This document shows positions 633 to 34,420 of a stretch of DNA of 64,000 bases, in pieces; position 1 is the first letter of the stretch, and every line of letters begins with the position of its first letter. The notes under the pieces were generated by a model. The model searched no databases, was not told where the DNA came from, and saw nothing but the letters and a program-made list of their open reading frames with translations. A program made the position numbers and the translations under genes. This DNA is from Candidatus Nomurabacteria bacterium (lineage in GTDB: Bacteria > Patescibacteriota > Minisyncoccia > Phycocordibacterales > UBA5272): the NCBI GenBank assembly GCA_029288775.1, contig JARIGQ010000006.1:120-64119 (forward strand). Direction: 5' to 3'.

Positions 633-1361
633 ATGGGCAAGTTTACGCTTTATATACACATCCTGAAGAAAACTTACAACATTGCTTGTTAACCAATACA
701 AACCAAGCGCAGAAGGCAATATTGATCCAGAAAAAGCAATAATAATTGGAAGTACATACAAAAGCTGCAATCTCATGGATTTTGCAAACTGATCCTGCAT
801 AGTTTCTTCCTCTGGTTTTTTTCCACTTACCATAGACGCAGTCTGTCGACGAGCAAGCATATAGGAGGATAATCCTGCCAATAACGCGATGAAAATATTT
901 TTCTGGGTTACATCAAAAAGACCAAAAGCACGTGTATGTAATTCTGCTGGAAAATGCACAAAAGAATAGATAGATGCAGGGTCAGCGTGAAGACCTCGTG
1001 AAAATACGAAATAGAGCGCAAAAAAGACAGGGATTTGAATAAGAGCCGTAAACAAACTTCCGAAGGGGTTAACCTTTTCCCGTTTATAAAGCTCCATCAT
1101 GTGTCGAGTAGCTTCCTGAGGATTATCTTTATGTTTCTTTTTAAGCTCATTCATTTCTCCTTCAATACGCTTCATAATGTACTGGCTTCGCAATGTAGAA
1201 AGATTAAGCGGCAAAAGAAGAAGCTTTACAAAAAGGGTAACTAATACAATAGTCGTGCCAATGTCATGCAAAGGCACGTAGGTAAGTGTAAGAACAATGA
1301 GATTATAAATCGGTTCGTAAAAGATGGTGTGGAACATAGGGTATAGATTACAGTGTAGCAA
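618..1361 (-). CDS. yidC: Membrane protein insertase YidC/Oxa1 (short form)
   Basis: Located immediately downstream of rnpA on the minus strand. Multi-TM protein with a charged loop (KKKHKDNPQEATRHMMELYKREKVNPFG) and a hydrophobic tail typical of short YidC. Confidence 0.75.
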   Translation of the reverse strand: MLHCNLYPMFHTIFYEPIYNLIVLTLTYVPLHDIGTTIVLVTLFVKLLLLPLNLSTLRSQYIMKRIEGEMNELKKKHKDNPQEATRHMMELYKREKVNPFGSLFTALIQIPVFFALYFVFSRGLHADPASIYSFVHFPAELHTRAFGLFDVTQKNIFIALLAGLSSYMLARRQTASMVSGKKPEEETMQDQFAKSMRLQLLYVLPIIIAFSGSILPSALGLYWLTSNVVSFLQDVYIKRKLAHLQTV

Positions 1362-1659
1362 ATGCCTTTTTAACCTCTTCTTGCAAATTTGGATAAGGTG
1401 CAGTTAGGAGTGTTTTAGTAGGATAAATGCAAATAGAAGCAGGTGTAGTGGGGACCATATCTCGTACAAGCGAGTAGACCTTACGTTTTGCACGATTACG
1501 GTCTACTGCACGCTTAATACGTTTTTTACTTATAATGCAGGCATATTTTGTTACGAGTGCAGGGGAGACACTTATATCGAAAAACGCGCCGCGGTACGCT
1601 AGGCGCGTTTTCATTCCCTTAAACTCCTTAGTGGTAAGACGGGATGCTTTAGGAAGCAT
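1348..1659 (-). CDS. rnpA: RNase P protein component
   Basis: 103-aa basic protein (KEFKGMKTRLAYRGAFFDISVSP...ISKKRIKRAVDRNRAKRKV), with the RnpA motif (RNRxKR); lies between rpmH and yidC. Confidence 0.8.
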   Translation of the reverse strand: MLPKASRLTTKEFKGMKTRLAYRGAFFDISVSPALVTKYACIISKKRIKRAVDRNRAKRKVYSLVRDMVPTTPASICIYPTKTLLTAPYPNLQEEVKKAFATL

Positions 1660-1665
1660 GATTAC

Positions 1666-1800
1666 TTAGACAGAAAGCTTCTTTCGTCCTGATGCACGGC
1701 GGCGGGCAAGAACCTTACGTCCTCCCTTTGAAGCCTGGCGTACGAGGAATCCGTGTGTTGTTGCTCGCTTCTTCTTCTTTGGGTTATATGTTTGAGACAT
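1666..1800 (-). CDS. rpmH: 50S ribosomal protein L34
   Basis: Hand translation of the minus strand gives [44 protein letters not shown] (44 aa), a canonical L34. It is under the 60-aa cutoff, so it is absent from the ORF track. Confidence 0.85.
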
Positions 1801-1864
1801 GGCGCCATTCTACACGAAGTAGGGGTATAAATCAATAAACGTAAGGAAACGAGCTTCCGTCAAG

Positions 1865-3238
1865 TTGAAGCAAACTGTGAGGCGTGTATACTACCAAACT
1901 ATGGACTATTCTCAACTCTGGAACAGTGCGTTATCACAGATAGAGATTGAACTTTCTCGGGTCAACTTTAATACCTGGTTCAAAAATACTCGAATTATAG
2001 ACTATAAGGACGGCGAGGTGACTATTGGTGTTCCGAATGAATTCGTAAAAGATTGGCTTAATCAAAAATATCATAAATTCATACTGCGTATTTTGCGTAC
2101 CATTCATGAAAGCGTGAGATCGGTTGTATTTACAGTAGTAAAACCAGAAAATCTTCAAAAGAAGGCTCAACATATTGCTATCACCGGGCAAACCCTTCCT
2201 CTTCAGGATTTATATATCAATAAAGATGACGGTTTAAACCCGCGCTATACCTTCGATAATTTTATTGTTGGTCCTTTTAATGAAGTGTCCTATGCTTGTG
2301 CCCAGGCGGTAATTAATAATCTAGGTATTGTCTATAACCCGCTCTTTATTTATGGAAATACCGGCCTTGGTAAGACCCATCTTATGCAAGCGATTGGTAA
2401 TGCGGTTAAGAAAAAGCATCCTGAAAGGAAAGTGTTTTATACATCCTTGGAAAAGTTCTACATGGATTATGTAAATGCTACAAACCTTAATAAAATTAAC
2501 AGTTTCAAGGAGAAATATCGTAAATATGATGTCTTTATTATGGACGATATTCAATTCATTAACGGTAAAGAACGTACCCAAGATGAGTTGTTCCATCTTT
2601 TTAATTCTCTCTACGAGATGAATAAGCAGATTATTTTCTCCTCAGATAAGCATCCAAACCTTATTGTTGGGTTGGAAGATCGTCTCCGGTCACGTTTCAA
2701 TCAAGGAATGATTGTGGATGTAAATATTCCTGCGTTTGAATCCAGACTAGCAATTCTTCAAGTGAAGACAAAGGAGTATGGAGATAAAATTCCACGAGAG
2801 GTGCTTGAATACATAGCTGAAACCATTCAAGGTAATATTCGAGAATTGGAAGGGGTGATGACCTCTATTATCGGCCATATTCAAATTAAACAACAAGCTA
2901 TTACACTTCTTGATGTAAAGAATCTCCTTAAAAATAATATTCGTGCTAAAAAGAGTATTTCTATTCCGGAAATAGTGAAGATGATTGCAGATTATTATCA
3001 TATACCCGATGTATATATCTACAACAAAACACGACGAAAAGATGTAGTGAAACCTCGACAGATTGTTATGTATATCCTACGAGAAGATTTTGACATTTCT
3101 TATCCGATGATAGGTGATAGGTTAGGAGGGAGGGATCATACTACTGTTATTCACTCGTATGAAAAAATTAAAAGTACTTTAAAAGAAAATCCACAACTTG
3201 GTCGTGAAATCGAAGATATTCGCGCAATGTTAGTCTAG
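1865..3238 (+). CDS. dnaA: Chromosomal replication initiator DnaA
   Basis: AAA+ Walker A GNTGLGKTHLMQAIGN and Walker B IMDDIQFI, plus a C-terminal DnaA-box-binding HTH. Divergent from the rpmH operon and followed by dnaN. Confidence 0.95.
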   Translation: MKQTVRRVYYQTMDYSQLWNSALSQIEIELSRVNFNTWFKNTRIIDYKDGEVTIGVPNEFVKDWLNQKYHKFILRILRTIHESVRSVVFTVVKPENLQKKAQHIAITGQTLPLQDLYINKDDGLNPRYTFDNFIVGPFNEVSYACAQAVINNLGIVYNPLFIYGNTGLGKTHLMQAIGNAVKKKHPERKVFYTSLEKFYMDYVNATNLNKINSFKEKYRKYDVFIMDDIQFINGKERTQDELFHLFNSLYEMNKQIIFSSDKHPNLIVGLEDRLRSRFNQGMIVDVNIPAFESRLAILQVKTKEYGDKIPREVLEYIAETIQGNIRELEGVMTSIIGHIQIKQQAITLLDVKNLLKNNIRAKKSISIPEIVKMIADYYHIPDVYIYNKTRRKDVVKPRQIVMYILREDFDISYPMIGDRLGGRDHTTVIHSYEKIKSTLKENPQLGREIEDIRAMLV

Positions 3239-3475
3239 GTAGTTTATTTCTGTGGATAGAATTGTGGAAAAGGGGAGAATAGCACCAGTATAACTATGAC
3301 GGATGTGGGAGTAGAATCTTACAATTCTATTCTTACCCACAAAAAATTGTCCTTTTACCCTCCAAGGACAATTGTTCTAAGAAGGTAAAAAACTATTTAA
3401 ATATAAGCTTTTTTTAACATTCCCCCATAGTCCACATAGCTATACTTAGTATCATTATTTATATATACTACTAGT
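3239..3475. promoter_or_regulatory. Putative oriC in the dnaA-dnaN intergenic region, with DnaA-box-like 9-mers and AT-rich unwinding tracts
   Basis: Sites close to TTATCCACA: CTATCCACA (reverse complement of 3251-3259), TTTTCCACA (reverse complement of about 3262-3270), TTACCCACA (3333-3341) and TAGTCCACA (3428-3436). Tracts at 3361-3420 and 3440-3475 are more than 75% AT. Confidence 0.5.
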
Positions 3476-4567
3476 ATGAAATTCGAATGCAGAGGAGAGG
3501 TATTTATTAAAGCAGTACAGCAAGTAGCTCGCGCTCGAAGTAAACAACAGTCTCAAAATTATCTTCAAGATATTCATATAGAACTTGATACTCATCTCCT
3601 TACACTACAAGCTACCAACCTGGAACTTTTTTGTGAAAAAAGTATTCCCGTAAAAGGTATCACTAATGGATCTTGTCTCCTTCAAGGAGAAACATTTCTT
3701 CGTATTTTATCTACCTATCAATCACTAGATACTGTACTTACTTGTGAATTAGTTGATGAAGTATTTACTATCACTACTGATAAAGGAGTGGTTGAAATTA
3801 AAACAACTCCCTATGAAGATTTCCCAACTCTTCCTCCTCAAGGAACTACTATTGGTACTCTTTCAAAAGATAACCTTAATACCCTTCTTAAAGAAGTGGT
3901 ATTCTGTGCAGCTACAACAGATATTAAGCCGGAAATCGCTTCTATTTACATGTATACCAAAGATGATCTTATCTATACTGTTGCTACCGATTCTTATCGT
4001 TTGGTGGAAAAAAGTATTCCTAATGAAAGTAATTTAGAATGCTCTCTTCTTATTCCTCAAAAACATATTGGAGATATATTACAAATTGTAGGGGAGGAAG
4101 GTGAAGAATTAACATTATCCCAAAATGAAGGTATTCTTTCTATTACCACTTCAAACCTTACTCTTTCTATTCATACAATTACCGGACAATTCCCTGATTA
4201 TCGTCAATTGTTTCCAAAAACTTTCACTACTACAATAACCTTAGCAAAAGAAGAGTTACAGAAAGCACTTACTTTAACCACATACTTTAATGAACAATAT
4301 TCACAAGTTGAATGTGTATTTACGGAACATAAAGTTATTTTCCATAGTCGTAACGAACAGGTGGGTCAGGTTACTCATACTATTAATGCAACTAAAGAAG
4401 GGGATGATATTGAGGCAAAATATAACAACCGATACTTTTTAGATGTGTTACCTCACATAGAAGGAGGAAGTGTTACATGTAAATTTACCACCCCTAATCG
4501 CGCTATGTTTATTCAAGGTACTAAAGATATTAGTTTTACCTACCTTCTAATGCCACTTAATAGATAA
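3476..4567 (+). CDS. dnaN: DNA polymerase III beta sliding clamp
   Basis: 363 aa, directly after dnaA/oriC. Three-domain clamp-like composition; the N-terminal MKFECRGEVFIKAVQQV is typical of DnaN. Confidence 0.9.
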   Translation: MKFECRGEVFIKAVQQVARARSKQQSQNYLQDIHIELDTHLLTLQATNLELFCEKSIPVKGITNGSCLLQGETFLRILSTYQSLDTVLTCELVDEVFTITTDKGVVEIKTTPYEDFPTLPPQGTTIGTLSKDNLNTLLKEVVFCAATTDIKPEIASIYMYTKDDLIYTVATDSYRLVEKSIPNESNLECSLLIPQKHIGDILQIVGEEGEELTLSQNEGILSITTSNLTLSIHTITGQFPDYRQLFPKTFTTTITLAKEELQKALTLTTYFNEQYSQVECVFTEHKVIFHSRNEQVGQVTHTINATKEGDDIEAKYNNRYFLDVLPHIEGGSVTCKFTTPNRAMFIQGTKDISFTYLLMPLNR

Positions 4568-4800: not shown

Positions 4801-7031
4801 AGTGGTGTATCTGGAATAATAACACCATTAATAGGATCTACACTCGGATTATTAATCACCTGAGGAGGTTGAGTGGGATCCGTGGTTGTTCCTGTTTGAG
4901 GTTGAATAGAAGGGGTTCCGCAAGAAATCCCATGTTTTGCTATCCAGTTTTGAATAGCAGTTTCCCAGTTATTGTATTGAGGATCACTGCGAGGGTTAGT
5001 AGGATAGGCACCATCTGGATCATCTTTATTTACAAATGCAAGAATAGTATGGATACCATCCGTACAATAATCCCCCCGGAGAATCGGCTTGCTTGATGTG
5101 TTCGGAAGAGGATCTGGGAAATACTCAACCGTAGAAGTTCCGATAACTACTTGCATAGCTTTATGCCAAATAGGGGCAAGAACAAGACCGGCAACCTTTT
5201 TATCAATAGGAGTATTATTGTTATTTCCTCCCCACATACCCAGAACTACCGATGGAGTGTAACCAACTACCCATACGTCCCTATAATCGTTTGTAGTACC
5301 CGTTTTGGCTGCTACAGGGCGGTCTCCAAAGTTAAACGGAGAAGAAGAAATAGGTCCATACGCAGGAATCTTAGCAACGTTGTCAGATAGTACACTTGAG
5401 ATAAGAGAAGTCACTGAATCGGGAAGTACCTGATTTTCTTTTTGGGTAAATTTTTCTAGTACTGTTCCATCTCCATCGCGTACTTCTAGAATCCCTGTGG
5501 GAGGATGATAAATGCCATTATCCGCAAATACACCATAAGCATTCGTGAGTTCAAGAAGGGTTACTTCACCACCACCAAGTACAAGCGAAAGCCCGTATCG
5601 TTGAGGGTCTTGGATGGTGGAAAGTCCCATATCTTGAGCCAATTTTACAGCCGTATTAATACCGGTGAGGTAGAGAAGTTTTACAGCAGGAACGTTTAAG
5701 GATTGAGCAAGAGCATTTCGTAAAGAGATTGGTCCACGGAAATTACCATCATAATTTTCCGGCATGTAACACGCGGAAGCATTCACACCCGATTTTGGAT
5801 TACCATATGGATCACATAAGGCGCTGAATTCAGTAGGAACATCATACAACACCGTTTCTGGGGTATATCCTTTTTCAAATGCCGCTGCATACACTATTGG
5901 TTTAAATGAAGATCCTGGCTGGCGATCAGCAAGTGCAATGTTGTACTGTCCTGGGATTTCAGTGTCAAAGAAATCGCGTGATCCAACCATCGCTAGGATT
6001 TGTCCTGTTTTTGGGTCAATGGCAACGGCGGCAGCATTTGAAGCTTTATATTTCTTTTCATTAGAAAGGGCTCCTTCTTTTACTATATCTTCCAGTTGTT
6101 TTTGAAGATTATAATCAATAGTTGTAATAACTTTTAATCCTCCATTTTCAACTACATCACTTCCATATTGTTCTTCGAGGTATTCTCTGATGTACATGAC
6201 GAAATGAAGCGCTTTTCCGCTATTAGAAGTATCTTCAAGGAAAGTTATCTTTTCATTTTGAGCTTCATTTTTCTGGGCTTCGGTTATATATCCGAGCTCA
6301 TACATGCGTTCGAGTACAAGATTTTTTCTTTTTTCTAGCTCATCACGATGTTTTCCGTAAGGAGAATAATAGGTAGGGGATTGAGGAAGGGCAGCCAAGT
6401 ATGCAGCTTGAGATAAAGTGAGTTCTTTTGCGTGAACTCCAAAATACGTAAGAGAGGCTTCTTCTACACCATAAATAGTTCCACCATAAGGACTTTCATT
6501 AAGATAGATTTGGAGAATGGTATCTTTTGGTACTTCTCGATCAAGTTTAATAGCAAGCACGATTTCCATTAATTTTCTCTTAATGGTCTTCTCTCGGGTA
6601 AGGAGGGCATTCTTTACTACCTGTTGATCAATAGTTGAACCACCTTGGGTGTATCCTCCGCTTACAATATTGGCAAGAACTGCGCGAATAAAAGAGGTGG
6701 GACGAAAACCATGATGTTCATAGAAATGGGCATCTTCAATAGAGATCGTTGCTTGCTGTACATAGGGACTCATTTCCGAAATAGGGACTTCGGTTCTTCG
6801 TACATTGTCATGAATATTATAGAGAACAATCGATCCGGTTCGGTCATAAATTTTGGTCGAATTAGCAATGGTGCGGTTTTCGAAGTTATTAAAATCAGGA
6901 AGCTGCAAGCTCGCTATCCAGCCTACAGTTAAAGCAAAGATAGTAATAAGCAGGGCTGCACCTATAAAAAGTACTTCCCGAATAAGCTTTTTTTGCGCAC
7001 GCTTCTTGCGCGAATGAACTTCTGTGGTCAT
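4797..7031 (-). CDS. Class A penicillin-binding protein 1A (transglycosylase plus transpeptidase)
   Basis: N-terminal TM segment. GT51 motifs EDAHFYEHHG and GGSTIDQQVVKN. Transpeptidase SSFKP, SLN and KTGTTND motifs. Pro/Thr-rich C-terminal tail. Confidence 0.9.
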   Translation of the reverse strand: MTTEVHSRKKRAQKKLIREVLFIGAALLITIFALTVGWIASLQLPDFNNFENRTIANSTKIYDRTGSIVLYNIHDNVRRTEVPISEMSPYVQQATISIEDAHFYEHHGFRPTSFIRAVLANIVSGGYTQGGSTIDQQVVKNALLTREKTIKRKLMEIVLAIKLDREVPKDTILQIYLNESPYGGTIYGVEEASLTYFGVHAKELTLSQAAYLAALPQSPTYYSPYGKHRDELEKRKNLVLERMYELGYITEAQKNEAQNEKITFLEDTSNSGKALHFVMYIREYLEEQYGSDVVENGGLKVITTIDYNLQKQLEDIVKEGALSNEKKYKASNAAAVAIDPKTGQILAMVGSRDFFDTEIPGQYNIALADRQPGSSFKPIVYAAAFEKGYTPETVLYDVPTEFSALCDPYGNPKSGVNASACYMPENYDGNFRGPISLRNALAQSLNVPAVKLLYLTGINTAVKLAQDMGLSTIQDPQRYGLSLVLGGGEVTLLELTNAYGVFADNGIYHPPTGILEVRDGDGTVLEKFTQKENQVLPDSVTSLISSVLSDNVAKIPAYGPISSSPFNFGDRPVAAKTGTTNDYRDVWVVGYTPSVVLGMWGGNNNNTPIDKKVAGLVLAPIWHKAMQVVIGTSTVEYFPDPLPNTSSKPILRGDYCTDGIHTILAFVNKDDPDGAYPTNPRSDPQYNNWETAIQNWIAKHGISCGTPSIQPQTGTTTDPTQPPQVINNPSVDPINGVIIPDTPL

Positions 7032-7069: not shown

Positions 7070-8263
7070 ATGGATAAAATCATCGTGGATGAAGCAAAAA
7101 TTGATGAACTTCTTACGCGCGGCGTAGAAGATATTATCGTTAAGGACGAATTAAAAGCGGCACTTCTGTCAGGCAAGCAACTTCGTGTAAAACTTGGGGT
7201 GGATCCTACCGGGCCTAAGATGCACTTAGGACGAGCGATTCCCCTTAGAAAATTACGAGAGTTTCAGAAATTGGGACATCAAATTGTATTTATTGTGGGT
7301 GATTTTACTGCCCAAGTAGGGGATGCGTCTGATAAAAGTGAGAAGCGTCCCATGCTCACCCGCGCTCAGATTGACGAGAACATTAAAGACTACAAGAGCC
7401 AGGTTTCCAAAATCATTGATATGTCCAAAGCTGAGTTTGTGTACAACAGTGACTGGCTTTCAAAGCTTTCCTTTGAAGAAGTGACCAAACTGGCGGAAGT
7501 TTTTACGGTTCAGCAGATGCTCGCGCGCAGAAATTTCAAGGATCGATATGATAAGGGTATAGAAATCTCTCTTCGTGAATTTCTTTACCCGCTTATGCAA
7601 GGGTACGATTCTGTTGCTGTAAGAGCTGATGTGGAGCTTGGAGGGTTTGATCAGCTTTTCAATGTAAAAGCGGGGCGTGTGGTTCAGGAATATTACGGGC
7701 AACCAAAGCAGCACATCATGGTAGGTACCATGCTTGAAGGGACAGATGGCCGCAAAATGTCGACAAGTTGGGGAAATGTTATCACTATTGTTGATGAGCC
7801 ATTTGATATGTTTGGCAAGCTTATGAGCGTGCGAGATGACCTCATCATTAAATATTTTACGTTATGCACCGATGTCTCCATGGAGGAAATCAAGGACTTG
7901 GAAAAACAACTCACGGAAGGTGTAAATCCTAAAGATATCAAAATGAGGCTTGCAACGGAAATTGTAACCATGTATCACACCGAGAAAGATGCCAGTCTTG
8001 CAAAGAGTGTGTGGGTAGAAACCTTCTCTAAAGGAGGTATACCGGAAGATATTCCAGAACTACACACAACTTCTGATAAGGATATTGCAGAGGTCTTAGT
8101 GGAAGCAGGTATTGTTTCTTCCAAGACAGATTGGCGTCGTTTGATTGAAGAGGGAGCAATTGTGGATGCTGAGGGGAATGAAATGAAGGATCCTAAAGTG
8201 AAAGCTTACAATGTAACGCTTAAAATTGGGAAAAAGCGTTTTGCACGAATAGTGCTTCAATAG
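7070..8263 (+). CDS. tyrS: Tyrosyl-tRNA synthetase (class I, KMSKS-type) with a C-terminal S4-like domain
   Basis: HIGH-like PKMHLGRAIP, QGYD motif, GGFDQ and KMSTS, with a C-terminal S4-like RNA-binding tail. TrpRS is the alternative; the QGYD motif and the S4 tail favour TyrRS. Confidence 0.65.
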   Translation: MDKIIVDEAKIDELLTRGVEDIIVKDELKAALLSGKQLRVKLGVDPTGPKMHLGRAIPLRKLREFQKLGHQIVFIVGDFTAQVGDASDKSEKRPMLTRAQIDENIKDYKSQVSKIIDMSKAEFVYNSDWLSKLSFEEVTKLAEVFTVQQMLARRNFKDRYDKGIEISLREFLYPLMQGYDSVAVRADVELGGFDQLFNVKAGRVVQEYYGQPKQHIMVGTMLEGTDGRKMSTSWGNVITIVDEPFDMFGKLMSVRDDLIIKYFTLCTDVSMEEIKDLEKQLTEGVNPKDIKMRLATEIVTMYHTEKDASLAKSVWVETFSKGGIPEDIPELHTTSDKDIAEVLVEAGIVSSKTDWRRLIEEGAIVDAEGNEMKDPKVKAYNVTLKIGKKRFARIVLQ

Positions 8264-10055: not shown

Positions 10056-10083
10056 TTGACAAAAGTTTTTATTGTGATATAAT
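10056..10083 (+). promoter_or_regulatory. Near-consensus sigma70 promoter (TTGACA, 16-17 nt spacer, TGaTATAAT)
   Basis: TTGACA at 10056-10061 and an extended -10 TGATATAAT at 10075-10083. Lies between ruvB and the ATPase gene and points at a region without an ORF. Confidence 0.5.
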
Positions 10084-10089
10084 ATGGAT

Positions 10090-10303
10090 AGATACGTTAG
10101 AAACGTATTTTTGTTTGTCAGAACCTATACATCTCTAAACAATCGGAACTTTTTGTTTCACTTTCTAATTCGGAGGACGGTCTGGTACGCCTTGTGCGTT
10201 TCTGTGCCTATCCTTATGAAGGAATGTTCTTCACCAAGGGGTTGCTTAGAGGTGTATGCGTTGTGACTCCTGCAACAAACCGCCGCTTACTGCGGCGGTT
10301 TGT
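10090..10303 (+). ncRNA. Candidate small non-coding RNA (about 215 nt), class unknown
   Basis: A strong promoter upstream and an intrinsic terminator AACAAACCGCCGC-ttac-TGCGGCGGTTTGTTATTT at 10277-10303. The only ATG (10084) is inside the -10 box, so it would not be on the transcript. There are internal hairpins such as ATACGTTagaaAACGTAT. Confidence 0.3.
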
Positions 10304-10306
10304 TAT

Positions 10307-12010
10307 TTATGCATCTCCATAGAGATCAACCGCCTTACCTAATTCTTCAAGGGACGTAGTACCTTCCAGCACTTTAATTATACCATCCTCCTTAAGTGAG
10401 GGGATACCTTGGTTTTTGGATGCGTCACGCACCTCTCGTTCGCTTGGATTAAGAGGAAGAACTTTCTCCAATTCAGCATCCATAAAGATCGCCTCAAAGA
10501 TACCGATACGTCCCGAGTAGCCTGTGCCGCCACAGTGTTCGCAGCCAACCGGATGATAGAGCGTGTACGTAGGGGCGGGCTCATGTCCCATCATGGAATC
10601 AATTTTTCCCGAAACTTTCATATCGCCAAGCACGTTGGTAATGACTCTCGATTCCTTTTCATCAGCAATGTATTCCTGTCGACATACCTCACAGAGTGTG
10701 CGTACGAGTCGTTGAGCAAGAGCAACTGAGAGAGAGCTTGCAAGTGTTTTTGGATTCACTCCAAGTTCGATTAAGCGTGGCACGGTACCTGCTGCGTTAT
10801 TGGTGTGAAGGGTTGAGAATACAAGGTGGCCGGTAAGTGCGGCATTTACAGCTACTTTGGCAGTATCGTTGTCACGAATTTCTCCCACCATAATGATATC
10901 TGGGTCTTGTCTTAATGCTGCTCGAAGACCAGAAAGGAAGGTATACCCTTTTTCTTCTTCTACTTGGGTTTGAGTTATGCCTTCCAAGTGGTACTCCACC
11001 GGATCTTCAATAGTGATGATTTTTACTTCCGTGTTATAGACATGATGCAAAAAAGCATAGAGTGTAGTGGTTTTTCCAGACCCAGTAGGGCCGGTAGTAA
11101 GGATGACTCCGTTTGGACGAGAGAGCGCATGGTAGAGTTTTTCGCGAAGTATGGCAGGGAAGGCGATGTTATCAAGATTGGAAACACTGTGACGCGGATC
11201 AAGGAGTCGCATTACGAAGGATTCTCCGTAATTGCCAGGAATGACCGAAACACGCACTTCCACTTCCACATCTTCCAAGTCGATAGAGAAGCGACCGTCT
11301 TGTGCGTCTGCTATCGTAGATAACTTAAGTCCGGCGAGAAGCTTGAGACGACTAGTGATATTTTTGAGTGCATTGAAATCAAAAAAAGCAATGTCTTCCA
11401 AAATGCCGTTTAGTCGATAACGAAGCCGAACCTTGTCTTCTTCTGGTTCGATATGAATATCGGAAGCGTCAAATTGAAGCGCTCCTGCCATGATGAGTTC
11501 AATGATGCGCGTGGTTTTATACAACACTTGCGAGTTCATGAGCTGATCGAATTGAGCTTTGAGTTCTTCTACAGTATGAAAACTTTGCATAAGCTTTTCC
11601 ATCTTTGTTTTAGTAAGCTCAAGCATGCCACTTTCTACTTTGGAAGTTTGATTAAGGTCAGCGTACCGGGAAAGTACATGCTCAAGCGATGCATGGGATA
11701 CAAGGTAGAGAAGTATTTCATACCCACGGGTTTCAAGGGGACGAAGCATTTCTTCCATTTTTTCGCGATTAGGCGCAATGGTTGCTACATGGACTTTCCT
11801 TCCCACGATTTTAAAAGGCACGCAGCCTGCTTCTCTTGCGTCTTCTTCTTTTACCAATTGCATTGCGTCTGGTTCCGGAGCTAAACCGCGCAAATCAATA
11901 TACGGAAGGCCGTATTTGTCGGAAAGTATTTTGACCAAATCCTCTTCCTCTTGTCGGCGAAGATCTTCCAGCTCATGATTTTGTATCGTGTCATCGATAA
12001 GGTGGGGCAT
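10307..12010 (-). CDS. Type IV pilus / type II secretion assembly ATPase (PilB/GspE family)
   Basis: Walker A TGPTGSGKTTTLYA, Asp box, Walker B IIMVGEIRD, His box, and a C-terminal tetracysteine CEVC...CEHCGG. The N-terminal domain fits GspE/PilB. Confidence 0.85.
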   Translation of the reverse strand: MPHLIDDTIQNHELEDLRRQEEEDLVKILSDKYGLPYIDLRGLAPEPDAMQLVKEEDAREAGCVPFKIVGRKVHVATIAPNREKMEEMLRPLETRGYEILLYLVSHASLEHVLSRYADLNQTSKVESGMLELTKTKMEKLMQSFHTVEELKAQFDQLMNSQVLYKTTRIIELIMAGALQFDASDIHIEPEEDKVRLRYRLNGILEDIAFFDFNALKNITSRLKLLAGLKLSTIADAQDGRFSIDLEDVEVEVRVSVIPGNYGESFVMRLLDPRHSVSNLDNIAFPAILREKLYHALSRPNGVILTTGPTGSGKTTTLYAFLHHVYNTEVKIITIEDPVEYHLEGITQTQVEEEKGYTFLSGLRAALRQDPDIIMVGEIRDNDTAKVAVNAALTGHLVFSTLHTNNAAGTVPRLIELGVNPKTLASSLSVALAQRLVRTLCEVCRQEYIADEKESRVITNVLGDMKVSGKIDSMMGHEPAPTYTLYHPVGCEHCGGTGYSGRIGIFEAIFMDAELEKVLPLNPSEREVRDASKNQGIPSLKEDGIIKVLEGTTSLEELGKAVDLYGDA

Positions 12011-12083
12011 TCCTTCCAGTATATAAGGCTTTTTCCTGGGGAGGAGGGGATAGAAAGGCAGTCGAAGACAGGGTTCATAGTAC

Positions 12084-12111
12084 TTGACAAAATCTTATTT
12101 TAATGTATACT
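12084..12111 (+). promoter_or_regulatory. Promoter: TACTTGACAAAAT, 16 nt, TATACT
   Basis: It shares the 13-mer TACTTGACAAAAT with the promoter at 13671 and drives the GC-rich ORF at 12200. Confidence 0.5.
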
Positions 12112-12199
12112 ATATACAGCCTCAATAGATTGGCCCAACGTCCGTCTAAAGAGATCAGTGTCCTGACCTTTTCCAATTTTTTGCCCAAAGGAGGGCATC

Positions 12200-12880
12200 A
12201 TGAACCTGAAGAAATTCTTTTTCCTGTGCGCTTTCCTGTTTCTTTCCGGCGTCGCCTCCGCTCAGTACGGTACGTACATGTACCAGCCGAACGCTGGCGT
12301 GTGGGTACCTCCCCCGCGAGTGGGAGTTCCTGTCATCCCGGTGCAACAACCGGTGATCGTCGTGAATCCGGCGCCGCAACAACCGGTGATCCCCATGCAG
12401 ATGGTGACTACTGCCAGCCCTGGAGTTTTCTCCTCGGGTGGCAGCTACTACCGCTGCTCCGCCATTCGGCAAGTCGCCGGCGGTCTTCTCGGTGCCCTGG
12501 GGGGCTGGGCTATTGGCAAGAACATCACCCTGAACGGCCACCACCTGAATACAGGAGGAGCCATTGCAGGAACGATGCTTGGCGCCGAGGTTGCCTGCGA
12601 GATGGTCGGGCCCACGCAAGTGGGCACACCGGCTGGCCAAGTTACCTTGAACGCCTCCGCGCAGCAAGTTGCGGTTCCTGCGGGTTCGAGACTGACCTAC
12701 AGTAACGAGTCCACCGGCGCCGATTCTTGCCGGGCGCTTTCCGACGGCACTCTCGTGCTGAAGGATGGTACTTCCACGCAACATGGGCAGGTTATCGCCA
12801 CCGAAAGCCAATACCCCAAACAGCAAGGCGAAGACTGCAACCATTGGCGCCGTCGCGTGGCGCCAATGGTCGTCCGCTAA
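12200..12880 (+). CDS. Secreted protein with a signal peptide, a Pro/Gln-rich linker and a glycine-zipper-like segment; member of a two-gene paralogous family
   Basis: Signal peptide MNLKKFFFLCAFLFLSGVASA-QY and RBS AAGGAGG. GC about 60%, against about 40% in the flanks. C-terminal block C..LSDG....LK......GQVIATE.Q.P......EDCN.WR.R.A..VVR shared with ORF 13031-13612. Terminator at 12899-12928. Confidence 0.6.
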   Translation: MNLKKFFFLCAFLFLSGVASAQYGTYMYQPNAGVWVPPPRVGVPVIPVQQPVIVVNPAPQQPVIPMQMVTTASPGVFSSGGSYYRCSAIRQVAGGLLGALGGWAIGKNITLNGHHLNTGGAIAGTMLGAEVACEMVGPTQVGTPAGQVTLNASAQQVAVPAGSRLTYSNESTGADSCRALSDGTLVLKDGTSTQHGQVIATESQYPKQQGEDCNHWRRRVAPMVVR

Positions 12881-12940
12881 TCCTTCAAGGATCCCACGAA
12901 ACCCCTCTTTCGAGAGGGGTTTTTCTATTGGTTTTATATG

Positions 12941-12968
12941 TTGACAAAAAATAAAAAACATGTATAAT
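12941..12968 (+). promoter_or_regulatory. Sigma70-like promoter: TTGACA, 16 nt, (TG)TATAAT
   Basis: TTGACA at 12941-12946 and TGTATAAT at 12961-12968, upstream of ORF 13031. Confidence 0.5.
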
Positions 12969-13030
12969 ATATATCGCAAGCACATCACGGTCGTGATGTG
13001 CGATAAGGATGATCTTTTAGTGGAGAACAT

Positions 13031-13612
13031 ATGTTCAAGCGATTCATTGGAGCGCTCGCGTTCGTCATGCTGCTTTCCATCACGGGGTGCGGCTGGTGGA
13101 AGGACAAGCCGGAGATGGTCACTATCTCCAAAACCGAGCACGAGAACCTTAAGGCGCAAGCCTCCAAGGTTCCGGGTCTCGAACAGTCCAACAAGACCCT
13201 GCAAGGCAAGGTCACCGAACTCGAAAAGCGCCCGGCGATCGAGGTGGCGGACACGAAGGATGTGGAGGAGATGGTGAAGAAGTATTGCGGTCCCAAGCCG
13301 CAGGCCTCCGTCCGCCGTGTGGTGCACACTCCGCGTCAGACGCAGATGGTGCCGCCCCCGGGACCTGCTCTGCCAGCACCGAACGGTCAGGCGGACTGGC
13401 TTCGTTCAGGGGAGGTGTGCCGCCTCCTTTCGGACGGCAGTGCATACCTGAAGACGACCCCAGGGGTGATCATTCCGCGAGGACAAGTTATCGCGACCGA
13501 ACCCCAGGATCCGCGCCCTTACGGCTACTTCGTGCAACGGATGGCCAAGCAGAGCACGGAGGATTGCAATCAGTGGCGCAACCGCGCCGCAAGCATCTAC
13601 GTGGTCCGCTGA
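13031..13612 (+). CDS. Lipoprotein-type secreted paralogue of ORF 12200-12880, with a coiled-coil segment
   Basis: Lipobox LSITGC. Coiled-coil stretch KTEHENLKAQASK...LQGKVTELEKR. Same C-terminal block, including EDCNQWRNRAASIYVVR. GC about 60%. Terminator at 13627-13664. Confidence 0.6.
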   Translation: MFKRFIGALAFVMLLSITGCGWWKDKPEMVTISKTEHENLKAQASKVPGLEQSNKTLQGKVTELEKRPAIEVADTKDVEEMVKKYCGPKPQASVRRVVHTPRQTQMVPPPGPALPAPNGQADWLRSGEVCRLLSDGSAYLKTTPGVIIPRGQVIATEPQDPRPYGYFVQRMAKQSTEDCNQWRNRAASIYVVR

Positions 13613-13672
13613 ACCCAGCCTGCTTGCAAAAAGCCCCGCGAAATGCGGGGCTTTTCTCTTTATTTTATGTAC

Positions 13673-13701
13673 TTGACAAAATAGTTCACTTGATGTATAA
13701 T
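13673..13701 (+). promoter_or_regulatory. Consensus sigma70 promoter TTGACA-17-TATAAT
   Basis: TTGACA at 13673-13678 and TATAAT at 13696-13701, inside the shared TACTTGACAAAAT context. RBS AGGAG is 11 nt before the ATG at 13732. Confidence 0.55.
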
Positions 13702-13731
13702 CTCCTTACTTATTAGGAGTAGTAAAAAAGT

Positions 13732-15498
13732 ATGACGCAATCACTAATCAGAAATATATTCGCGGTTCTTACCGTAGCAGCCGTAGTATGTACACCGTTT
13801 TCAGCATTTGCTGATGATGGGTATATTGGGGGAGGGGTGTATAACGATGCTTTCGTTGGTTCTCCCTCTTACAATGATGGTTACATCGGATCTAGTGCTT
13901 ATAATGATGGTTACGTCGGATCCCCGTCATATAATGATGGTTACATCGGTTACTCTTCTCCTTCTTGGACTGGGTATTCATCTCCTTCATACGGATACAC
14001 TACGTATTCTTCCTACTCATATCCAACTACTTATGGATACACAAATTATACGTACCCAACTTATACCGCTCCAGTAGTTACTACTCCTATTGTTGCGCCT
14101 ACAACCGTTGTTCCAACTACTACTTCGACTGTATGTTCGGATGGATTCGCACCAGTAAACGGTTCTTGTGTTCGTACTAACACTATTCCAACTACCGTCA
14201 CAACACTCTGTTCTGATGGTCAGGCACCAATTAATGGTTCTTGTGTTCGTACTAACACGCTTCCTACCGCAGTGCAGACTATTTGTTCTGATGGGTCCTA
14301 TCCAATAAACGGTTCATGTGTTCGTACTCAAGTGGTACCAACGACAACGGTGTCATACCAGACCTGTTGGGATGGTTCTACTATTCCGCTTGGATCAGTA
14401 TGTCCTTCACAGTACAAGACCTGTGCAAATGGAACATCTATTCCTGTGTATCAGACCTGTTATTACGGAAACACCTACGTGCCGTATGTTCCACCTGCTA
14501 CTATCAAGTTCAATAATGTCATCACAAGTGTGACGACTGAAATTACCAACACTTCTGCACGTTGTAACGGCATTGGGCTCATTGCAGCAAATGCTTCTTC
14601 GGTAGGCTGGTTTGAATACGGTGAAACCGCAAACCTTGGTCGCGAAACTGCTCATGCAAATATCGGATCATCTGCGACTTCGCCATTCTCAAATAAGCTC
14701 GTCAATCTTAAGCCTTCAACCACCTATTATTGTCGCGCAGTGATGCAGAATCAGTACGGCACAGTGAAAGGGGAAGTGGTTGCCTTTACTACAAAAGCAA
14801 AGGCTGTTGCCTATGTGAAGCCAGTTACGGTGACAACGGTTAAGGTTACTCCTAAGCCTGTGAAGAAGAATGAGGTTCTCTGTGTTGATGGACAAGTTGT
14901 TACTGTTGGATCACAATCCGCCGCACAGCTTATCAATGCTGGACAGAAACTTATTTCTCTTCAAATAGAAAAGGTAAGTGGAAACTTTGCGCCGAATTCA
15001 CAAGTCATCTATCGTCTTACAGTAAAGAATATTTCGGATCAGGATCTCAAAAATGTTACAGTTAAAGTAACTATTCCTCAAGAAATAATGCTTACGAACG
15101 CATCTGCAGGAACGTATGACTCTATGTCACATGTGCTTACAATTGCTAATCTTCCACTTGCTGCGTATGGAACAATAGCAATTACCTGGACAGGAGTGGT
15201 GGTACCGGAGGCAACTGTTGGCAATTCAACAGTAACAACAGCCTATACAAGCTATTCAGTTCCTGGTTCAAGCGCTGTTGATGAAGTGAATGCGTATGTT
15301 GCAAGCTCTGTAGTACCAACTCCAGATAATGCAACAACGACAGGTGCTAAGAAGGTGATTGGGGTTTCCTCAAGCGGAGCGTCATTCCTTCCAAACACTC
15401 TTGTAGAGTGGCTTGCACTTATTGCTATCCTCTTCATTATCTTCATTCTAGGACGAAGCGTGTACACTTCATACCGTTCAGATAAAGACTCGCACTAA
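13732..15498 (+). CDS. Cell-surface repeat protein: signal peptide, YNDGYIGS repeats, three Cys-pair CSDGxAPINGSCVRTNT repeats, a DUF11-like domain and a C-terminal TM anchor
   Basis: Signal peptide ending SAFA-DD. Four copies of (Y)NDGY(I/V)GS(P/S)(S/A)Y. Three copies of 38-aa Cys-containing repeats. Ser/Thr/Tyr-rich linker. A domain with LTVKNISDQDLKNVTVKVTIP...LTIANLPLAAYGTIAITWTGVV in the DUF11/CARDB style. C-terminal hydrophobic helix followed by basic residues. Confidence 0.75.
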   Translation: MTQSLIRNIFAVLTVAAVVCTPFSAFADDGYIGGGVYNDAFVGSPSYNDGYIGSSAYNDGYVGSPSYNDGYIGYSSPSWTGYSSPSYGYTTYSSYSYPTTYGYTNYTYPTYTAPVVTTPIVAPTTVVPTTTSTVCSDGFAPVNGSCVRTNTIPTTVTTLCSDGQAPINGSCVRTNTLPTAVQTICSDGSYPINGSCVRTQVVPTTTVSYQTCWDGSTIPLGSVCPSQYKTCANGTSIPVYQTCYYGNTYVPYVPPATIKFNNVITSVTTEITNTSARCNGIGLIAANASSVGWFEYGETANLGRETAHANIGSSATSPFSNKLVNLKPSTTYYCRAVMQNQYGTVKGEVVAFTTKAKAVAYVKPVTVTTVKVTPKPVKKNEVLCVDGQVVTVGSQSAAQLINAGQKLISLQIEKVSGNFAPNSQVIYRLTVKNISDQDLKNVTVKVTIPQEIMLTNASAGTYDSMSHVLTIANLPLAAYGTIAITWTGVVVPEATVGNSTVTTAYTSYSVPGSSAVDEVNAYVASSVVPTPDNATTTGAKKVIGVSSSGASFLPNTLVEWLALIAILFIIFILGRSVYTSYRSDKDSH

Positions 15499-18994: not shown

Positions 18995-19073
18995 GTAAAA
19001 GCGGCAGGTGTCGGTAGGGGTATATGTAAACCTACGGTAAGGATTGGTTACAGGGTCTAGTGTTGTGTCTCTG

Positions 19074-32616: not shown

Positions 32617-32691
32617 GTGCCTATAGTGTAATGGTTAGCACGCGGGCTTGTGGAGCCCTCAGTTCGAGTTCGAATCTCGATAGGCACACCA
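32617..32691 (+). tRNA. tRNA-His (anticodon GUG), with an extra G at -1; it serves as the integration site (attL) for the downstream island array
   Basis: Hand fold: G(-1) GTGCCTA/TAGGCAC, anticodon loop UUGUGGA, T loop TTCGAAT, ACCA. The 3' 33 nt are overlapped by the recombinase coding sequence. Confidence 0.85.
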
Positions 32692-34281
32692 ATCGCTACG
32701 AACTAAGTCAATTCGTTGATTTCGTTCAGTAGTATCAAGGGTTTTATCCAGTTCCAACCCTTTTAATCTGGTTTCTAATGCTGGATAGCTGTTTTCAACC
32801 TCTTTTACCCATTCATATTTGGAAATACTGAGAATTCTATCTTTGATGACGAAGTTCGAACCTAAAGAAGTGAAAAGTTTCCTCTTCTCTTCTGGTTTTG
32901 TCTCAGGATTATTAAATCTTGCTCTTGAGTAGGTCGCAAAGTCGAAGAATTCTTTCGTGGTATCCAACCACTTAGACGCTCTCTGCTCTGTGGAATACAT
33001 CTCGGACTTCAGTTTCGCTAACTGGGACCGCAAGTCGTCTCTCATTCTTAAAAACTCTTCTTCGCTAATCAGCTCTCTGTAGAACATCTTGGAGAGATTA
33101 TCGAGTTCGTTCTGTGTCTTATTGTAGGAAGACTGTTGGGACTCATATATCGTTGATCGGTCCTCAATCTCTAATTCATTCCTCTCACTCAAATAATCTA
33201 ATGCCCATTGTAGAAACTTCGGGTTAATTTGGCACTTCTGAAGTTCGCTGTCTATCTGTTCTTCCAACTGTTTAACAGTTAAGGTTCGCTTCTGGGAGCA
33301 GGCTACTCGACGTGTCTTTCTTGTGCAGTAGTAATAGGTATAGGATTCAATTTTCCCAGTAGATTTTATCTGCTTTTGTTTTGTTGTTGCCGTATGCAAA
33401 CAGTCGCACTCACCACATCTGATAAGGCCAGTGTAGGCGTGGTTATGCTCCGCCATTCTCGGCTTACCTTTCTTTCCTAAAAGGAATTGAACACGGTCAT
33501 ACTCTTCCAACGTAATCATAGCCTTATGGTTGCCAGTTTTCAGCTCTCGGTTCCAAGTGAATAGACCAGTATAAAAAATATTGTTAAACATCTTATAGAT
33601 AGTTGAATTAGCAAGAGGCCTATCTCCTCCGTGAGAAGTTCTTGGTGTTCTAAAACCCCATTCCTCATTTGCTATCTTTATTATCCTAGGAGGGGTGTAA
33701 TTCCCAGAGAGCATCATTTCCCACATAGACCGAACAAGCGGAAAGAGCTCTTCGTCCACCATAATCTTTTTATTTAGTCTGTCATTCTTGTATCCGAGTG
33801 GCGGTTTTGTAGGATAATCACCACGTTCAGCTTTACCGTTCATTCCACGCTTCACATTCTTACTTAAATCAATAAGGAACTGATTCGCTGAACCTGTTTC
33901 TACGTTGAATAAAATAACATTGTCTTCTGGCTTATATTCCTTATCAATAGTTTGAATGGACTGAATGATTCCTTTTTGTAGTAACCAGCTAAGCTTCCCG
34001 CTGTCGATTGGGTTTCTTGATAGACGATTAATCTGCCAACACAAAATACCCTCGGCTTCTCTATTCTCAATTCTTTGAAGCATATCTTCAAACACCGGTC
34101 GTCCGGGCATTTTTGCAGACTTGGATTCGGTGAGAATGTCTATAGTTTTAATGCCCTCAATACTTGCGAGATGTTTTAATCTTTCAATCTGATCGTCGAT
34201 GGATTGAATCTGCCTGTCTTCACTTTCCGAAGATTTTCTAGCATAGAGGAAGTATCTAAGTTGTGGCTTTTCTTGTTTCAT
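32659..34281 (-). CDS. Large serine recombinase (integrase) of integrated element 1
   Basis: Resolvase catalytic domain YARKSS...QINRLSR. Recombinase domain. Zinc ribbon CGECDC...YYCTRK. Coiled coil. The C-terminus overlaps the tRNA-His 3' end. It has an intact paralogue-like counterpart, frameshifted, at 50964-52624. Confidence 0.9.
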   Translation of the reverse strand: MKQEKPQLRYFLYARKSSESEDRQIQSIDDQIERLKHLASIEGIKTIDILTESKSAKMPGRPVFEDMLQRIENREAEGILCWQINRLSRNPIDSGKLSWLLQKGIIQSIQTIDKEYKPEDNVILFNVETGSANQFLIDLSKNVKRGMNGKAERGDYPTKPPLGYKNDRLNKKIMVDEELFPLVRSMWEMMLSGNYTPPRIIKIANEEWGFRTPRTSHGGDRPLANSTIYKMFNNIFYTGLFTWNRELKTGNHKAMITLEEYDRVQFLLGKKGKPRMAEHNHAYTGLIRCGECDCLHTATTKQKQIKSTGKIESYTYYYCTRKTRRVACSQKRTLTVKQLEEQIDSELQKCQINPKFLQWALDYLSERNELEIEDRSTIYESQQSSYNKTQNELDNLSKMFYRELISEEEFLRMRDDLRSQLAKLKSEMYSTEQRASKWLDTTKEFFDFATYSRARFNNPETKPEEKRKLFTSLGSNFVIKDRILSISKYEWVKEVENSYPALETRLKGLELDKTLDTTERNQRIDLVRSDWCAYRDSNSN

Positions 34282-34420
34282 TTGTGTACCAAAAAAGGGG
34301 TAACAGGAATGCTTGTAATTGCGAAACCACAAGAGCTGTTACCCCATCTTTGGCTACAAACATTCCTATGTATCTTATGGTTTCGCATATACAGTATATA
34401 ACGTTAGAAGTTAAGTTTTG

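Follow-up and report, generated by a model that had tools for sequence, protein, structure and literature searches.

A long-resident GC-rich locus for exported envelope proteins beside pilB in AT-rich genomes of a Nomurabacteria-like clade

A 64,000-nucleotide (nt) stretch of DNA from Candidatus Nomurabacteria bacterium (contig JARIGQ010000006.1, positions 120 to 64,119 of the forward strand), hereafter called the window, contains two tandem genes, termed A and B, whose guanine-plus-cytosine (GC) content is far above that of the surrounding DNA. These genes occupy a native, long-resident locus that lies between pilB and tsaE-polA in a low-GC clade of Paceibacteria/Nomurabacteria-like candidate phyla radiation (CPR) bacteria. 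The locus is composed of strongly signalled single-gene units for fast-evolving exported envelope proteins, and its GC enrichment is limited to coding sequence. We favour the view that GC-rich coding sequence is kept at this site either by selection on mRNA or by a recombination-linked GC bias, with the latter a close second. Our preferred reading, held tentatively and with slightly less than even confidence, is that this is a native locus of abundant envelope proteins whose coding GC is upheld in place by selection on the mRNA. No description of the locus or of the phenomenon was found in the literature, and, as far as could be found, the clade-wide persistence of a GC-rich locus for envelope proteins in AT-rich CPR genomes is undescribed. 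With it come a new two-Cys protein module and the conserved leader hairpins described below.

When the window is scanned in 500 nt segments, its GC content has a mean of 0.413 (standard deviation (sd) 0.048), and values above 0.52 are confined to positions 12001-13750. This region holds gene A (12200-12880, + strand; 226 aa) and gene B (13031-13612, + strand; 193 aa), each with a GC content of 0.61. The original prediction, which was made from the letters of the window, had described a pair of genes of about 60% GC in a context of about 40%, and recomputation in sliding windows gave this contrast rather than a uniform composition; the coordinates stated for the pair were also correct. At the first, second and third codon positions (GC1, GC2 and GC3), GC is 0.63, 0.50 and 0.68 for gene A and 0.62, 0.46 and 0.76 for gene B. 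The 42 other open reading frames (ORFs) of the window have a GC3 of 0.360 +/- 0.058 with a maximum of 0.546, placing gene A about 5.5 sd and gene B about 6.9 sd above the background mean. An internal control is provided by the next gene downstream (13673-15498, + strand), which encodes a Tyr/Thr-rich surface protein of 588 aa that combines a DUF11 domain with a membrane anchor at the C-terminus. The composition of this gene is normal (GC 0.44, GC3 0.33).

The change in GC content at the edges of the island is abrupt and coincides with the start and stop codons of the two genes. Part of the spacer between A and B (12920-12979) has a GC content of only 0.18 and the stretch at 13640-13759 one of about 0.30, the 5′ leaders have values of 0.46-0.48, and the promoter regions are far lower. 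The AT-richer leaders and promoters indicate a GC pressure that is pervasive at the nucleotide level yet confined to coding sequence. G and C contribute about equally in both genes. Furthermore, all amino acids have moved to G/C-ending codons, such that AAG accounts for 85% of Lys codons (38% in the background) and GAG for 65% of Glu codons (29% in the background). The sole Lys tRNA seen in the window carries the anticodon UUU. This uniform shift, which includes Lys and Glu, is unlike the expectation for tRNA-matched translational selection. Recoding with host codons would leave gene A at 0.49 GC and gene B at 0.47 GC, and thus about 60% of the GC excess is synonymous and about 40% compositional. 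The encoded proteins are enriched in Gly, Ala, Pro, Arg and Val and depleted in Ile, Phe, Tyr, Asn and Lys.

The long spurious ORFs that had been predicted in other frames are also present, and have low-complexity translations. One example is an antisense ORF of 390 aa (12155-13327, - strand) that runs across both GC-rich genes and the AT-rich spacer, and its Arg/Leu/Gly-rich translation gives no pointer to function. Comparable long antisense ORFs occur in the islands of four relatives (L012, L013, L028 and L062), and all of these look like by-products of high GC.

To examine relatives, we used the pilB-like gene (10307-12010, - strand) as a positional anchor. This gene encodes a type II/IV secretion ATPase and is divergent from gene A. 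The best matches to its product are 65-79% identical, and all come from metagenome-assembled genomes (MAGs) labelled Paceibacterota, Parcubacteria, Nomurabacteria or Saccharibacteria, which places the host among the CPR/Patescibacteria. Of 80 PilB-anchored loci, many have a GC-rich island on the divergent strand, immediately upstream of pilB. A test independent of the choice of ORFs compared the maximum 500 nt GC value within 2.5 kb upstream of pilB with the GC content of pilB itself. The upstream peak exceeds pilB by more than 0.10 in all 15 loci of the close clade (PilB at least 64% identical), with a mean excess of +0.174 (sd 0.034). In contrast, the downstream control has a mean of +0.021, and none of 14 loci exceeds 0.10. 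Hosts of higher GC also have GC-richer islands (slope 1.1, r 0.71), and two, sometimes three, single-gene units are found at the island across the clade.

The complete order RuvC, RuvB, PilB (- strand), A, B, surface protein, TsaE and PolA recurs in four further contigs from three independent sources (L084/L085 and L087 from JGI, L086 from Logan). In these contigs, flanking proteins are 62-93% identical to those of the window, whereas A and B are 26-38% identical, mostly over their C-terminal module. A and B stand above their neighbours at all three codon positions in each syntenic genome (0.48-0.51 versus 0.35-0.41, 0.59-0.60 versus 0.43-0.47, and 0.50-0.51 versus 0.33-0.37), and the spacers are AT-rich. 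The low identity of these positional orthologues indicates that A and B are old residents. Because synonymous sites are saturated at such divergence, the sustained GC offset would not be a leftover of recent import. In distant high-GC relatives, pilB directly abuts tsaE-polA with nothing between them, and the island is therefore either an old clade-specific insertion or was lost later in those lineages; a very old insertion is possible.

Islands of other close relatives contain different exported Cys-containing families or variant C-terminal modules, and some of these align at matching Cys positions. One relative (L062) has two GC-rich island genes (5399-6331 and 7208-7906, both - strand; GC3 0.66-0.69) whose C-terminal stretches of about 105 aa are identical, which points to duplication or gene conversion within this island in the very recent past. 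Another gene of the same island (6529-6996) reaches a GC3 of 0.91. GC-rich islets also occur elsewhere in related low-GC CPR loci (L038 2838-3518, L061 11167-11784, L032 5698-6378 and L074 2793-4204), at 0.13-0.22 above background and mostly with cytoplasmic-looking products. Accessory genes of high GC thus occur at sites other than the one beside pilB and need not encode exported proteins. We considered GC-richness as a general mark of exported proteins and rejected it, given these islets and the exported DUF11 neighbour that is not GC-rich.

Both proteins carry export signals that can be read from the sequence, as had been predicted. Protein A begins with a signal peptide of the signal-peptidase-I type (aa 1-21, 12200-12262), MNLKKFFFLCAFLFLSGVASA followed by QY (...SGVASA/QY), and also has a P/Q/V-rich linker, a glycine zipper that lies between two Cys (C86-C133, 12455-12598), and a C-terminal two-Cys module (C177-R226, 12728-12877). 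C86, C133, C177 and C213 are invariant in the alignment of A-type proteins. The glycine-zipper segment that had been noted in this protein is directly visible as small-x3-small (GxxxG/A) motifs at aa 88-131, within the Gly-x3-Gly-rich helices GGLLGALGGWAIG ... GGAIAGTMLGAEV, and AlphaFold2 places helices at aa 88-104 and 116-127 with low confidence. The full-length model of protein A is likewise mostly of low confidence, with a predicted local distance difference test (pLDDT) score of 53, and the C-terminal module within it scores 82-90. A full-length homologue (P0008) is 30% identical to protein A, and the zipper segment is 53% identical to that of the L004 homologue.

Protein B has a lipoprotein signal (13031-13090), MFKRFIGALAFVMLLS-ITG-C20, with a positively charged n-region, a hydrophobic h-region and a lipobox (LLSITG/C) that fits the pattern [LVI][ASTVI][GAS]C, and is a predicted lipoprotein. 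The lipobox is followed by a charged, coiled-coil-looking region, a Pro-rich linker, and a C-terminal two-Cys module (C130-R193, 13418-13609). Over their C-terminal 50-65 residues, A and B are 45-51% identical (E 2e-11) and share two invariant Cys, which agrees with the proposal that they are tandem paralogues with a common C-terminal block. The consensus of the module is C-R-L-x-S-D-G-T-A-R-L-K ... G-x-V-[IL]-A ... E-D-C-x-x-W-R-x-R, and its conservation at the protein level includes the invariant Cys and Trp residues. When modelled alone by AlphaFold2, it forms beta strands and a terminal helix (pLDDT 74).

An exhaustive HMMER search with the module through 1.84 billion cluster representatives found 24 further proteins, with E down to 4e-12. 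About 20 of these are true family members, and four are apparently spurious repeat proteins. The relatives found are only distant (30-50% identity), and nearly all of those with readable context reside in AT-rich CPR genomes. They fall into two types according to their N-termini. A-type proteins have a signal peptide and a Cys-bracketed glycine zipper, often with another Cys pair, whereas B-type proteins start with a lipobox or an N-terminal membrane anchor, and a coiled coil and Pro-rich linker lead from there to the common module. P0010, P0016, P0005 and P0012 are B-type relatives in which such an N-terminus and a coiled coil precede the module. Lipobox signals like that of B are present in several B-type relatives, for example P0016, P0025 and L078. 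A-type and B-type genes are paired on one contig in at least seven other organisms. One 288-aa protein (L089 23-889, + strand) contains three tandem copies of the module, which indicates that the module is an autonomous domain. The triple-module gene is adjoined by IS66-family transposase-like ORFs (1248-4017) on a contig (Ga0208398_100615) of mosaic composition (0.36-0.61 GC), and no other member of the family was seen away from an AT-rich CPR setting.

Other searches returned nothing further. A and B have no match in Pfam, NCBIfam, PHROGs or PADLOC. Word-indexed searches of 5.8 billion proteins with A, B and a 22-sequence module alignment returned the queries alone or nothing, and an exact query for P0001 in the contig index gave no record. 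A pattern scan of GTDB representative genomes with a two-sequence module alignment revealed no relatives, and neither plasmids nor phages yielded a tblastn match.

The closest known architecture is that of glycine-zipper envelope proteins (PF05433 Rick_17kDa_Anti/Glycine zipper 2TM, PF13488 and PF13441), which include the rickettsial 17-kDa antigen and the lipoproteins SlyB/Pcp. Like these, protein A has two Gly-x3-Gly-rich helices after an export signal, and five of 11 A-type proteins match Pfam glycine-zipper families (best E 2.6e-7), although protein A of the window does not. Protein A also differs in having a signal-peptidase-I signal rather than a lipobox, in carrying its zipper between two invariant Cys, and in its fusion to a C-terminal two-Cys module not known in those families. 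A further difference is the host, a CPR bacterium; this group is generally believed to have no outer membrane.

Each gene has its own expression signals, all on the + strand, as had been proposed. The promoter of A (12084-12111) is TTGACA-16-TATACT, which matches the sigma-70 consensus at 11 of 12 positions and has a TG just 5′ of the -10 box. The leader that follows is about 82 nt long (about 12118-12199) and includes a hairpin (12121-12153; CTC..TAGAT.GGC-loop-GTC.GTCTA..GAG) and a Shine-Dalgarno sequence, GGAGG (12190-12194). The gene ends with an intrinsic terminator (12898-12931) composed of a hairpin with an 11-bp stem (12898-12923) and a T tract. Gene B has a perfect promoter (12941-12968; TTGACA-16-TATAAT, 12/12), a leader hairpin (12980-13001) of the form GCACATCAC-GGTC-GTGATGTGC, a GGAG Shine-Dalgarno sequence (13022-13025), and an intrinsic terminator (13629-13665) whose hairpin (13629-13655) has a 12-bp stem followed by a T tract. 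A promoter 13-mer had been reported as shared with the neighbouring surface-protein gene. The exact 13-mer, TACTTGACAAAAT, is found only upstream of A and of the surface-protein gene, and B has just TTGACAAAA. The surface-protein gene promoter (13673-13701, + strand) also matches at 12 of 12 positions. Promoters matching at 11 or more positions number four in the window, all within 10056-13701. Besides those of A, B and the DUF11 surface-protein gene, they include the promoter of a candidate small RNA.

The same layout is seen at the island genes of 12 genomes, whatever protein family they encode. Their promoters follow the pattern TTGACA-16-TATA(A/C)T with 9-12 of 12 matches (all but one at least 10), compared with 7-9 of 12 for housekeeping neighbours. 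They have leaders of 60-95 nt, an AGGAG Shine-Dalgarno sequence (often AGGAG-N3-CATC-ATG) and, in most cases, their own terminator. Leader hairpins begin within a few nt of the predicted 5′ end. Leader structure was judged by z-scores against shuffled sequences, since MAFFT shifts the 3′ arms of the hairpins and so spoils column-wise covariation, and picking out the hairpins by prior folding would be a circular procedure. The minimum free energy of the A leader is -11.5 kcal/mol (z -1.8) and that of the B leader is -15 to -17 kcal/mol (z -2.1). Overall, the folds of island leaders exceed those of dinucleotide-shuffled controls in stability (mean z -2.15, n=23, p 2e-8). In the orthologous leaders of the window A gene and of L086_A, the flanks CCTCAATA...TAAAGAGATC are kept and the inner stem is replaced with pairing retained. 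Moreover, a stem, TAGATTGG...GTCCGTCTA, is common to the leaders of window A, L030_A and L012_i2, and the last of these precedes an unrelated coding sequence.

The finding that GC-rich coding sequence travels with a strong promoter, 5′ hairpin, Shine-Dalgarno sequence and terminator, whatever protein is encoded, is why we favour selection on the mRNA. In this scheme, A and B would be abundant envelope or surface proteins. The common, fast-evolving C-terminal module may be presented to one shared partner, which could be the other protein of the pair, the cell wall or the host-cell surface to which these episymbionts attach. A GC-favouring pressure would act on the coding sequence, atop the base composition of each host, and the resulting GC-rich, structured and nuclease-resistant message could permit high and stable expression. 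The 5′ hairpin and 3′ terminator might add to message stability. This would resemble the lpp and ompA mRNAs of E. coli, which are highly expressed and very stable, and which have a 5′ stem-loop stabiliser, a strong promoter and a strong terminator. Like these, A and B are single-gene envelope units with a near-consensus promoter, 5′ hairpin, strong Shine-Dalgarno sequence and strong intrinsic terminator. Unlike A and B, lpp and ompA do not lie 20 GC points above their own genome, and the proteins are unrelated.

Several observations weigh against this preferred reading. GC3 offsets that track expression level are usually much smaller than the 0.3-0.4 seen for A and B. Neither ribosomal-protein genes nor other reference genes of high expression lie in the window, and hence it offers no expression-linked codon yardstick from the same genome. 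The adjacent surface-protein gene has a 12/12 promoter and is also fast-evolving, yet it is not GC-rich. Its GC3 of 0.33 indicates that promoter strength alone does not predict the GC shift, and its perfect promoter and rapid evolution without GC enrichment weaken readings based on mRNA selection and on recombination alike. Protein A of the window matches no Pfam family at E≤1 and no glycine-zipper model at E≤0.1. Finally, the proposed role of the module is read from its architecture, and the module has no match by fold in PDB or BFVD and none by sequence profile.

A different force would be at work if the site were a recombination hot spot with GC-biased fixation, an explanation that we consider possible although rather doubtful. 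Here, the island would be a hypervariable expression site whose coding cassettes undergo repeated exchange or conversion among alleles and paralogues, with the conserved promoter-leader and terminator acting as homology arms. GC-biased heteroduplex repair would raise GC only at positions that differ between alleles, which lie in the coding sequence. This scheme is consistent with the variation of island content and C-terminal modules among close relatives at a fixed position, with the leader stem shared by window A, L030_A and L012_i2 despite the unrelated L012_i2 protein, and with the L062 pair of identical C-termini. The A and B modules of the window are also 0.62 identical, making them the most similar pair in the family matrix and closer to each other than either of them is to an orthologue. 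However, the likeness of A and B modules within a genome is not significantly higher than that between genomes across the family (permutation p 0.10). The shift at all codon positions and towards Gly, Ala, Pro and Arg fits a nucleotide-level fixation bias, and the sharp edges agree with one that is restricted to sites of mismatch. Against this stands the size of the effect, since biased gene conversion in bacteria usually shifts GC3 by a few points and not by 30-40. The surface-protein gene next door, also fast-evolving, again speaks against the scheme, and L084 and L085 (99.8% identical, with no single-nucleotide polymorphisms in the island) are too similar to yield polymorphism data.

A known precedent for such a process is vlsE/vls of Borrelia, a GC-rich surface-lipoprotein locus in an AT-rich genome that is diversified by gene conversion. 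The A/B locus resembles it in coding for surface proteins or lipoproteins, in having a GC content far above that of the genome, and in diversifying rapidly, but its diversity is seen between genomes only. Searches for silent cassettes or partial copies in the window by blastn-short and tblastn recovered only self matches and the paralogy of A and B. Other hallmarks of vls and pilE-pilS were missing too: the island and its surroundings lack a G-quadruplex motif, and neither GC skew nor G-runs occur in the window. These 64 kb therefore lend no support to a vls-like silent-cassette system. A broader version, which we regard as unlikely, is a population-level expression site beside pilB, at which interchangeable GC-rich cassettes, encoding modules displayed on the surface for host-cell recognition, sit in conserved promoter-leader-terminator frames and are swapped by recombination, possibly through pilus-dependent DNA uptake. 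If this were true, GC-richness would be a footprint or a functional requirement of the conversion process, and the locus would correspond, at the level of populations of episymbiotic ultra-small bacteria, to surface variation of the vls/pilE type.

Recurrent import is distinctly less probable than either selection on mRNA or biased recombination at the site. It would make the pilB-tsaE gap an integration hot spot that is repeatedly refilled from a GC-richer mobile pool (other CPR lineages or the phages or plasmids of these), with partial amelioration thereafter. The abutment of pilB and tsaE-polA in distant high-GC relatives, which makes the island a clade-specific insertion, would fit this proposal, as would the differences in island content between relatives, the GC-rich islets elsewhere in related loci that encode non-exported accessory proteins, and the triple-module gene of L089 beside IS66-family genes in a context of 0.51-0.61 GC. 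Nevertheless, the edges of the island carry neither integrase or transposase genes nor a tRNA or flanking repeats. The nearest tRNA is at 19073, and island DNA is not repeated in the window. The A/B pair, its module and its order persist across genomes whose synonymous sites are saturated, and island GC follows host GC with a slope of about 1. Apart from L089, every family member whose context could be read belongs to an AT-rich CPR genome and lies in or close to the locus, and plasmids and phages gave no matches. The locus can also be set beside classical genomic islands. It shares with them an atypical composition, accessory exported proteins and absence from distant relatives, but it is GC-richer rather than AT-richer than the core, lacks mobility genes, tRNA and repeats, and is held at one site throughout the close clade with a composition that tracks the host.

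The original prediction had proposed a recent acquisition from a high-GC host or neighbour under native promoters. Although all three codon positions show an atypical composition and A and B were singletons in the word-indexed search, this origin is very improbable. All 15 of the close relatives keep the position, the size of the GC offset follows host GC, the positional orthologues are so divergent (26-38% identical) that they must be old, no donor homologue was found in GTDB representatives, plasmids or phages, and there is no mobility gene at the island. Least credible of all is an artefact, either a contaminant chimera, as the prediction had allowed for, or a GC-rich structured non-coding RNA with spurious ORFs of the kind that high-GC DNA yields in several frames: the arrangement recurs in many independent assemblies from different studies, which effectively excludes a chimeric join, the protein family has invariant Cys, signal peptides, lipoboxes and E down to 4e-12, and no Rfam family matches at E≤1, save for weak hits that overlap the terminators.

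It is routine to interpret a compositional island as the result of recent horizontal transfer. The island described here, with an offset of +0.17 GC (up to +0.4 GC3), is stably inherited clade-wide, which implies that some force acting in place holds two to three coding sequences off the base-composition equilibrium of the genome. The locus therefore offers a clean natural test of whether bacterial GC is upheld by selection on mRNA and expression or by biased gene conversion. It also brings to light an unannotated envelope family, fast-evolving and probably abundant, in CPR bacteria, whose cell surface and host attachment are poorly understood. Composition-based callers of horizontal gene transfer and contamination filters for MAGs would wrongly flag such a locus.

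The genes that flank the island are housekeeping genes. One flank encodes PBP1A, TyrRS, RuvC, RuvB and the PilB-type ATPase, and the other encodes the DUF11 surface protein, TsaE and DNA polymerase I. The surface-protein gene is syntenic in L084 and L087. The spacer between ruvB and pilB contains a candidate small RNA gene (10056-10300, + strand) that is apparently unannotated. Its promoter (10056-10083; TTGACA-16-TATAAT, 12/12, with an upstream TG) is followed by a conserved core of about 150 nt (about 10114-10267) with invariant GGACGGTCTGG and TTCTTCACCAAGGGGTTGCTTAGAG and by a terminator hairpin (10282-10299), all on the + strand. The promoter matches at 11-12 of 12 positions in all 16 related loci examined. 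RNAalifold analysis of 15 sequences gave 48 pairs, of which 14 show compensatory double changes, arranged as a long closing helix with three internal hairpins. The candidate matches no Rfam 15 family at E≤1.

Three further features were noted away from the island. A large serine recombinase gene (32659-34332, - strand) with Resolvase, Recombinase and Zn-ribbon domains abuts a tRNA-His gene (32617-32691, + strand), and AT-rich stretches lie beyond it at 36.5-37.3 kb. The recombinase and tRNA-His region (32617-34332) may be an integrated element. In one MAG of the comparison, a single 21.6-kb locus is present twice, inverted, on a 53-kb contig (CAZNZQ010000005.1; L015, 30884-52506, and L016, 527-22149 reversed). 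The GC profiles of the two copies are identical, and the duplication is probably a palindromic assembly artefact. Lastly, a giant ORF of 3637 aa (37853-48766, + strand), with a high GC2 of 0.50 and a low GC3 of 0.31, probably encodes a huge surface protein.

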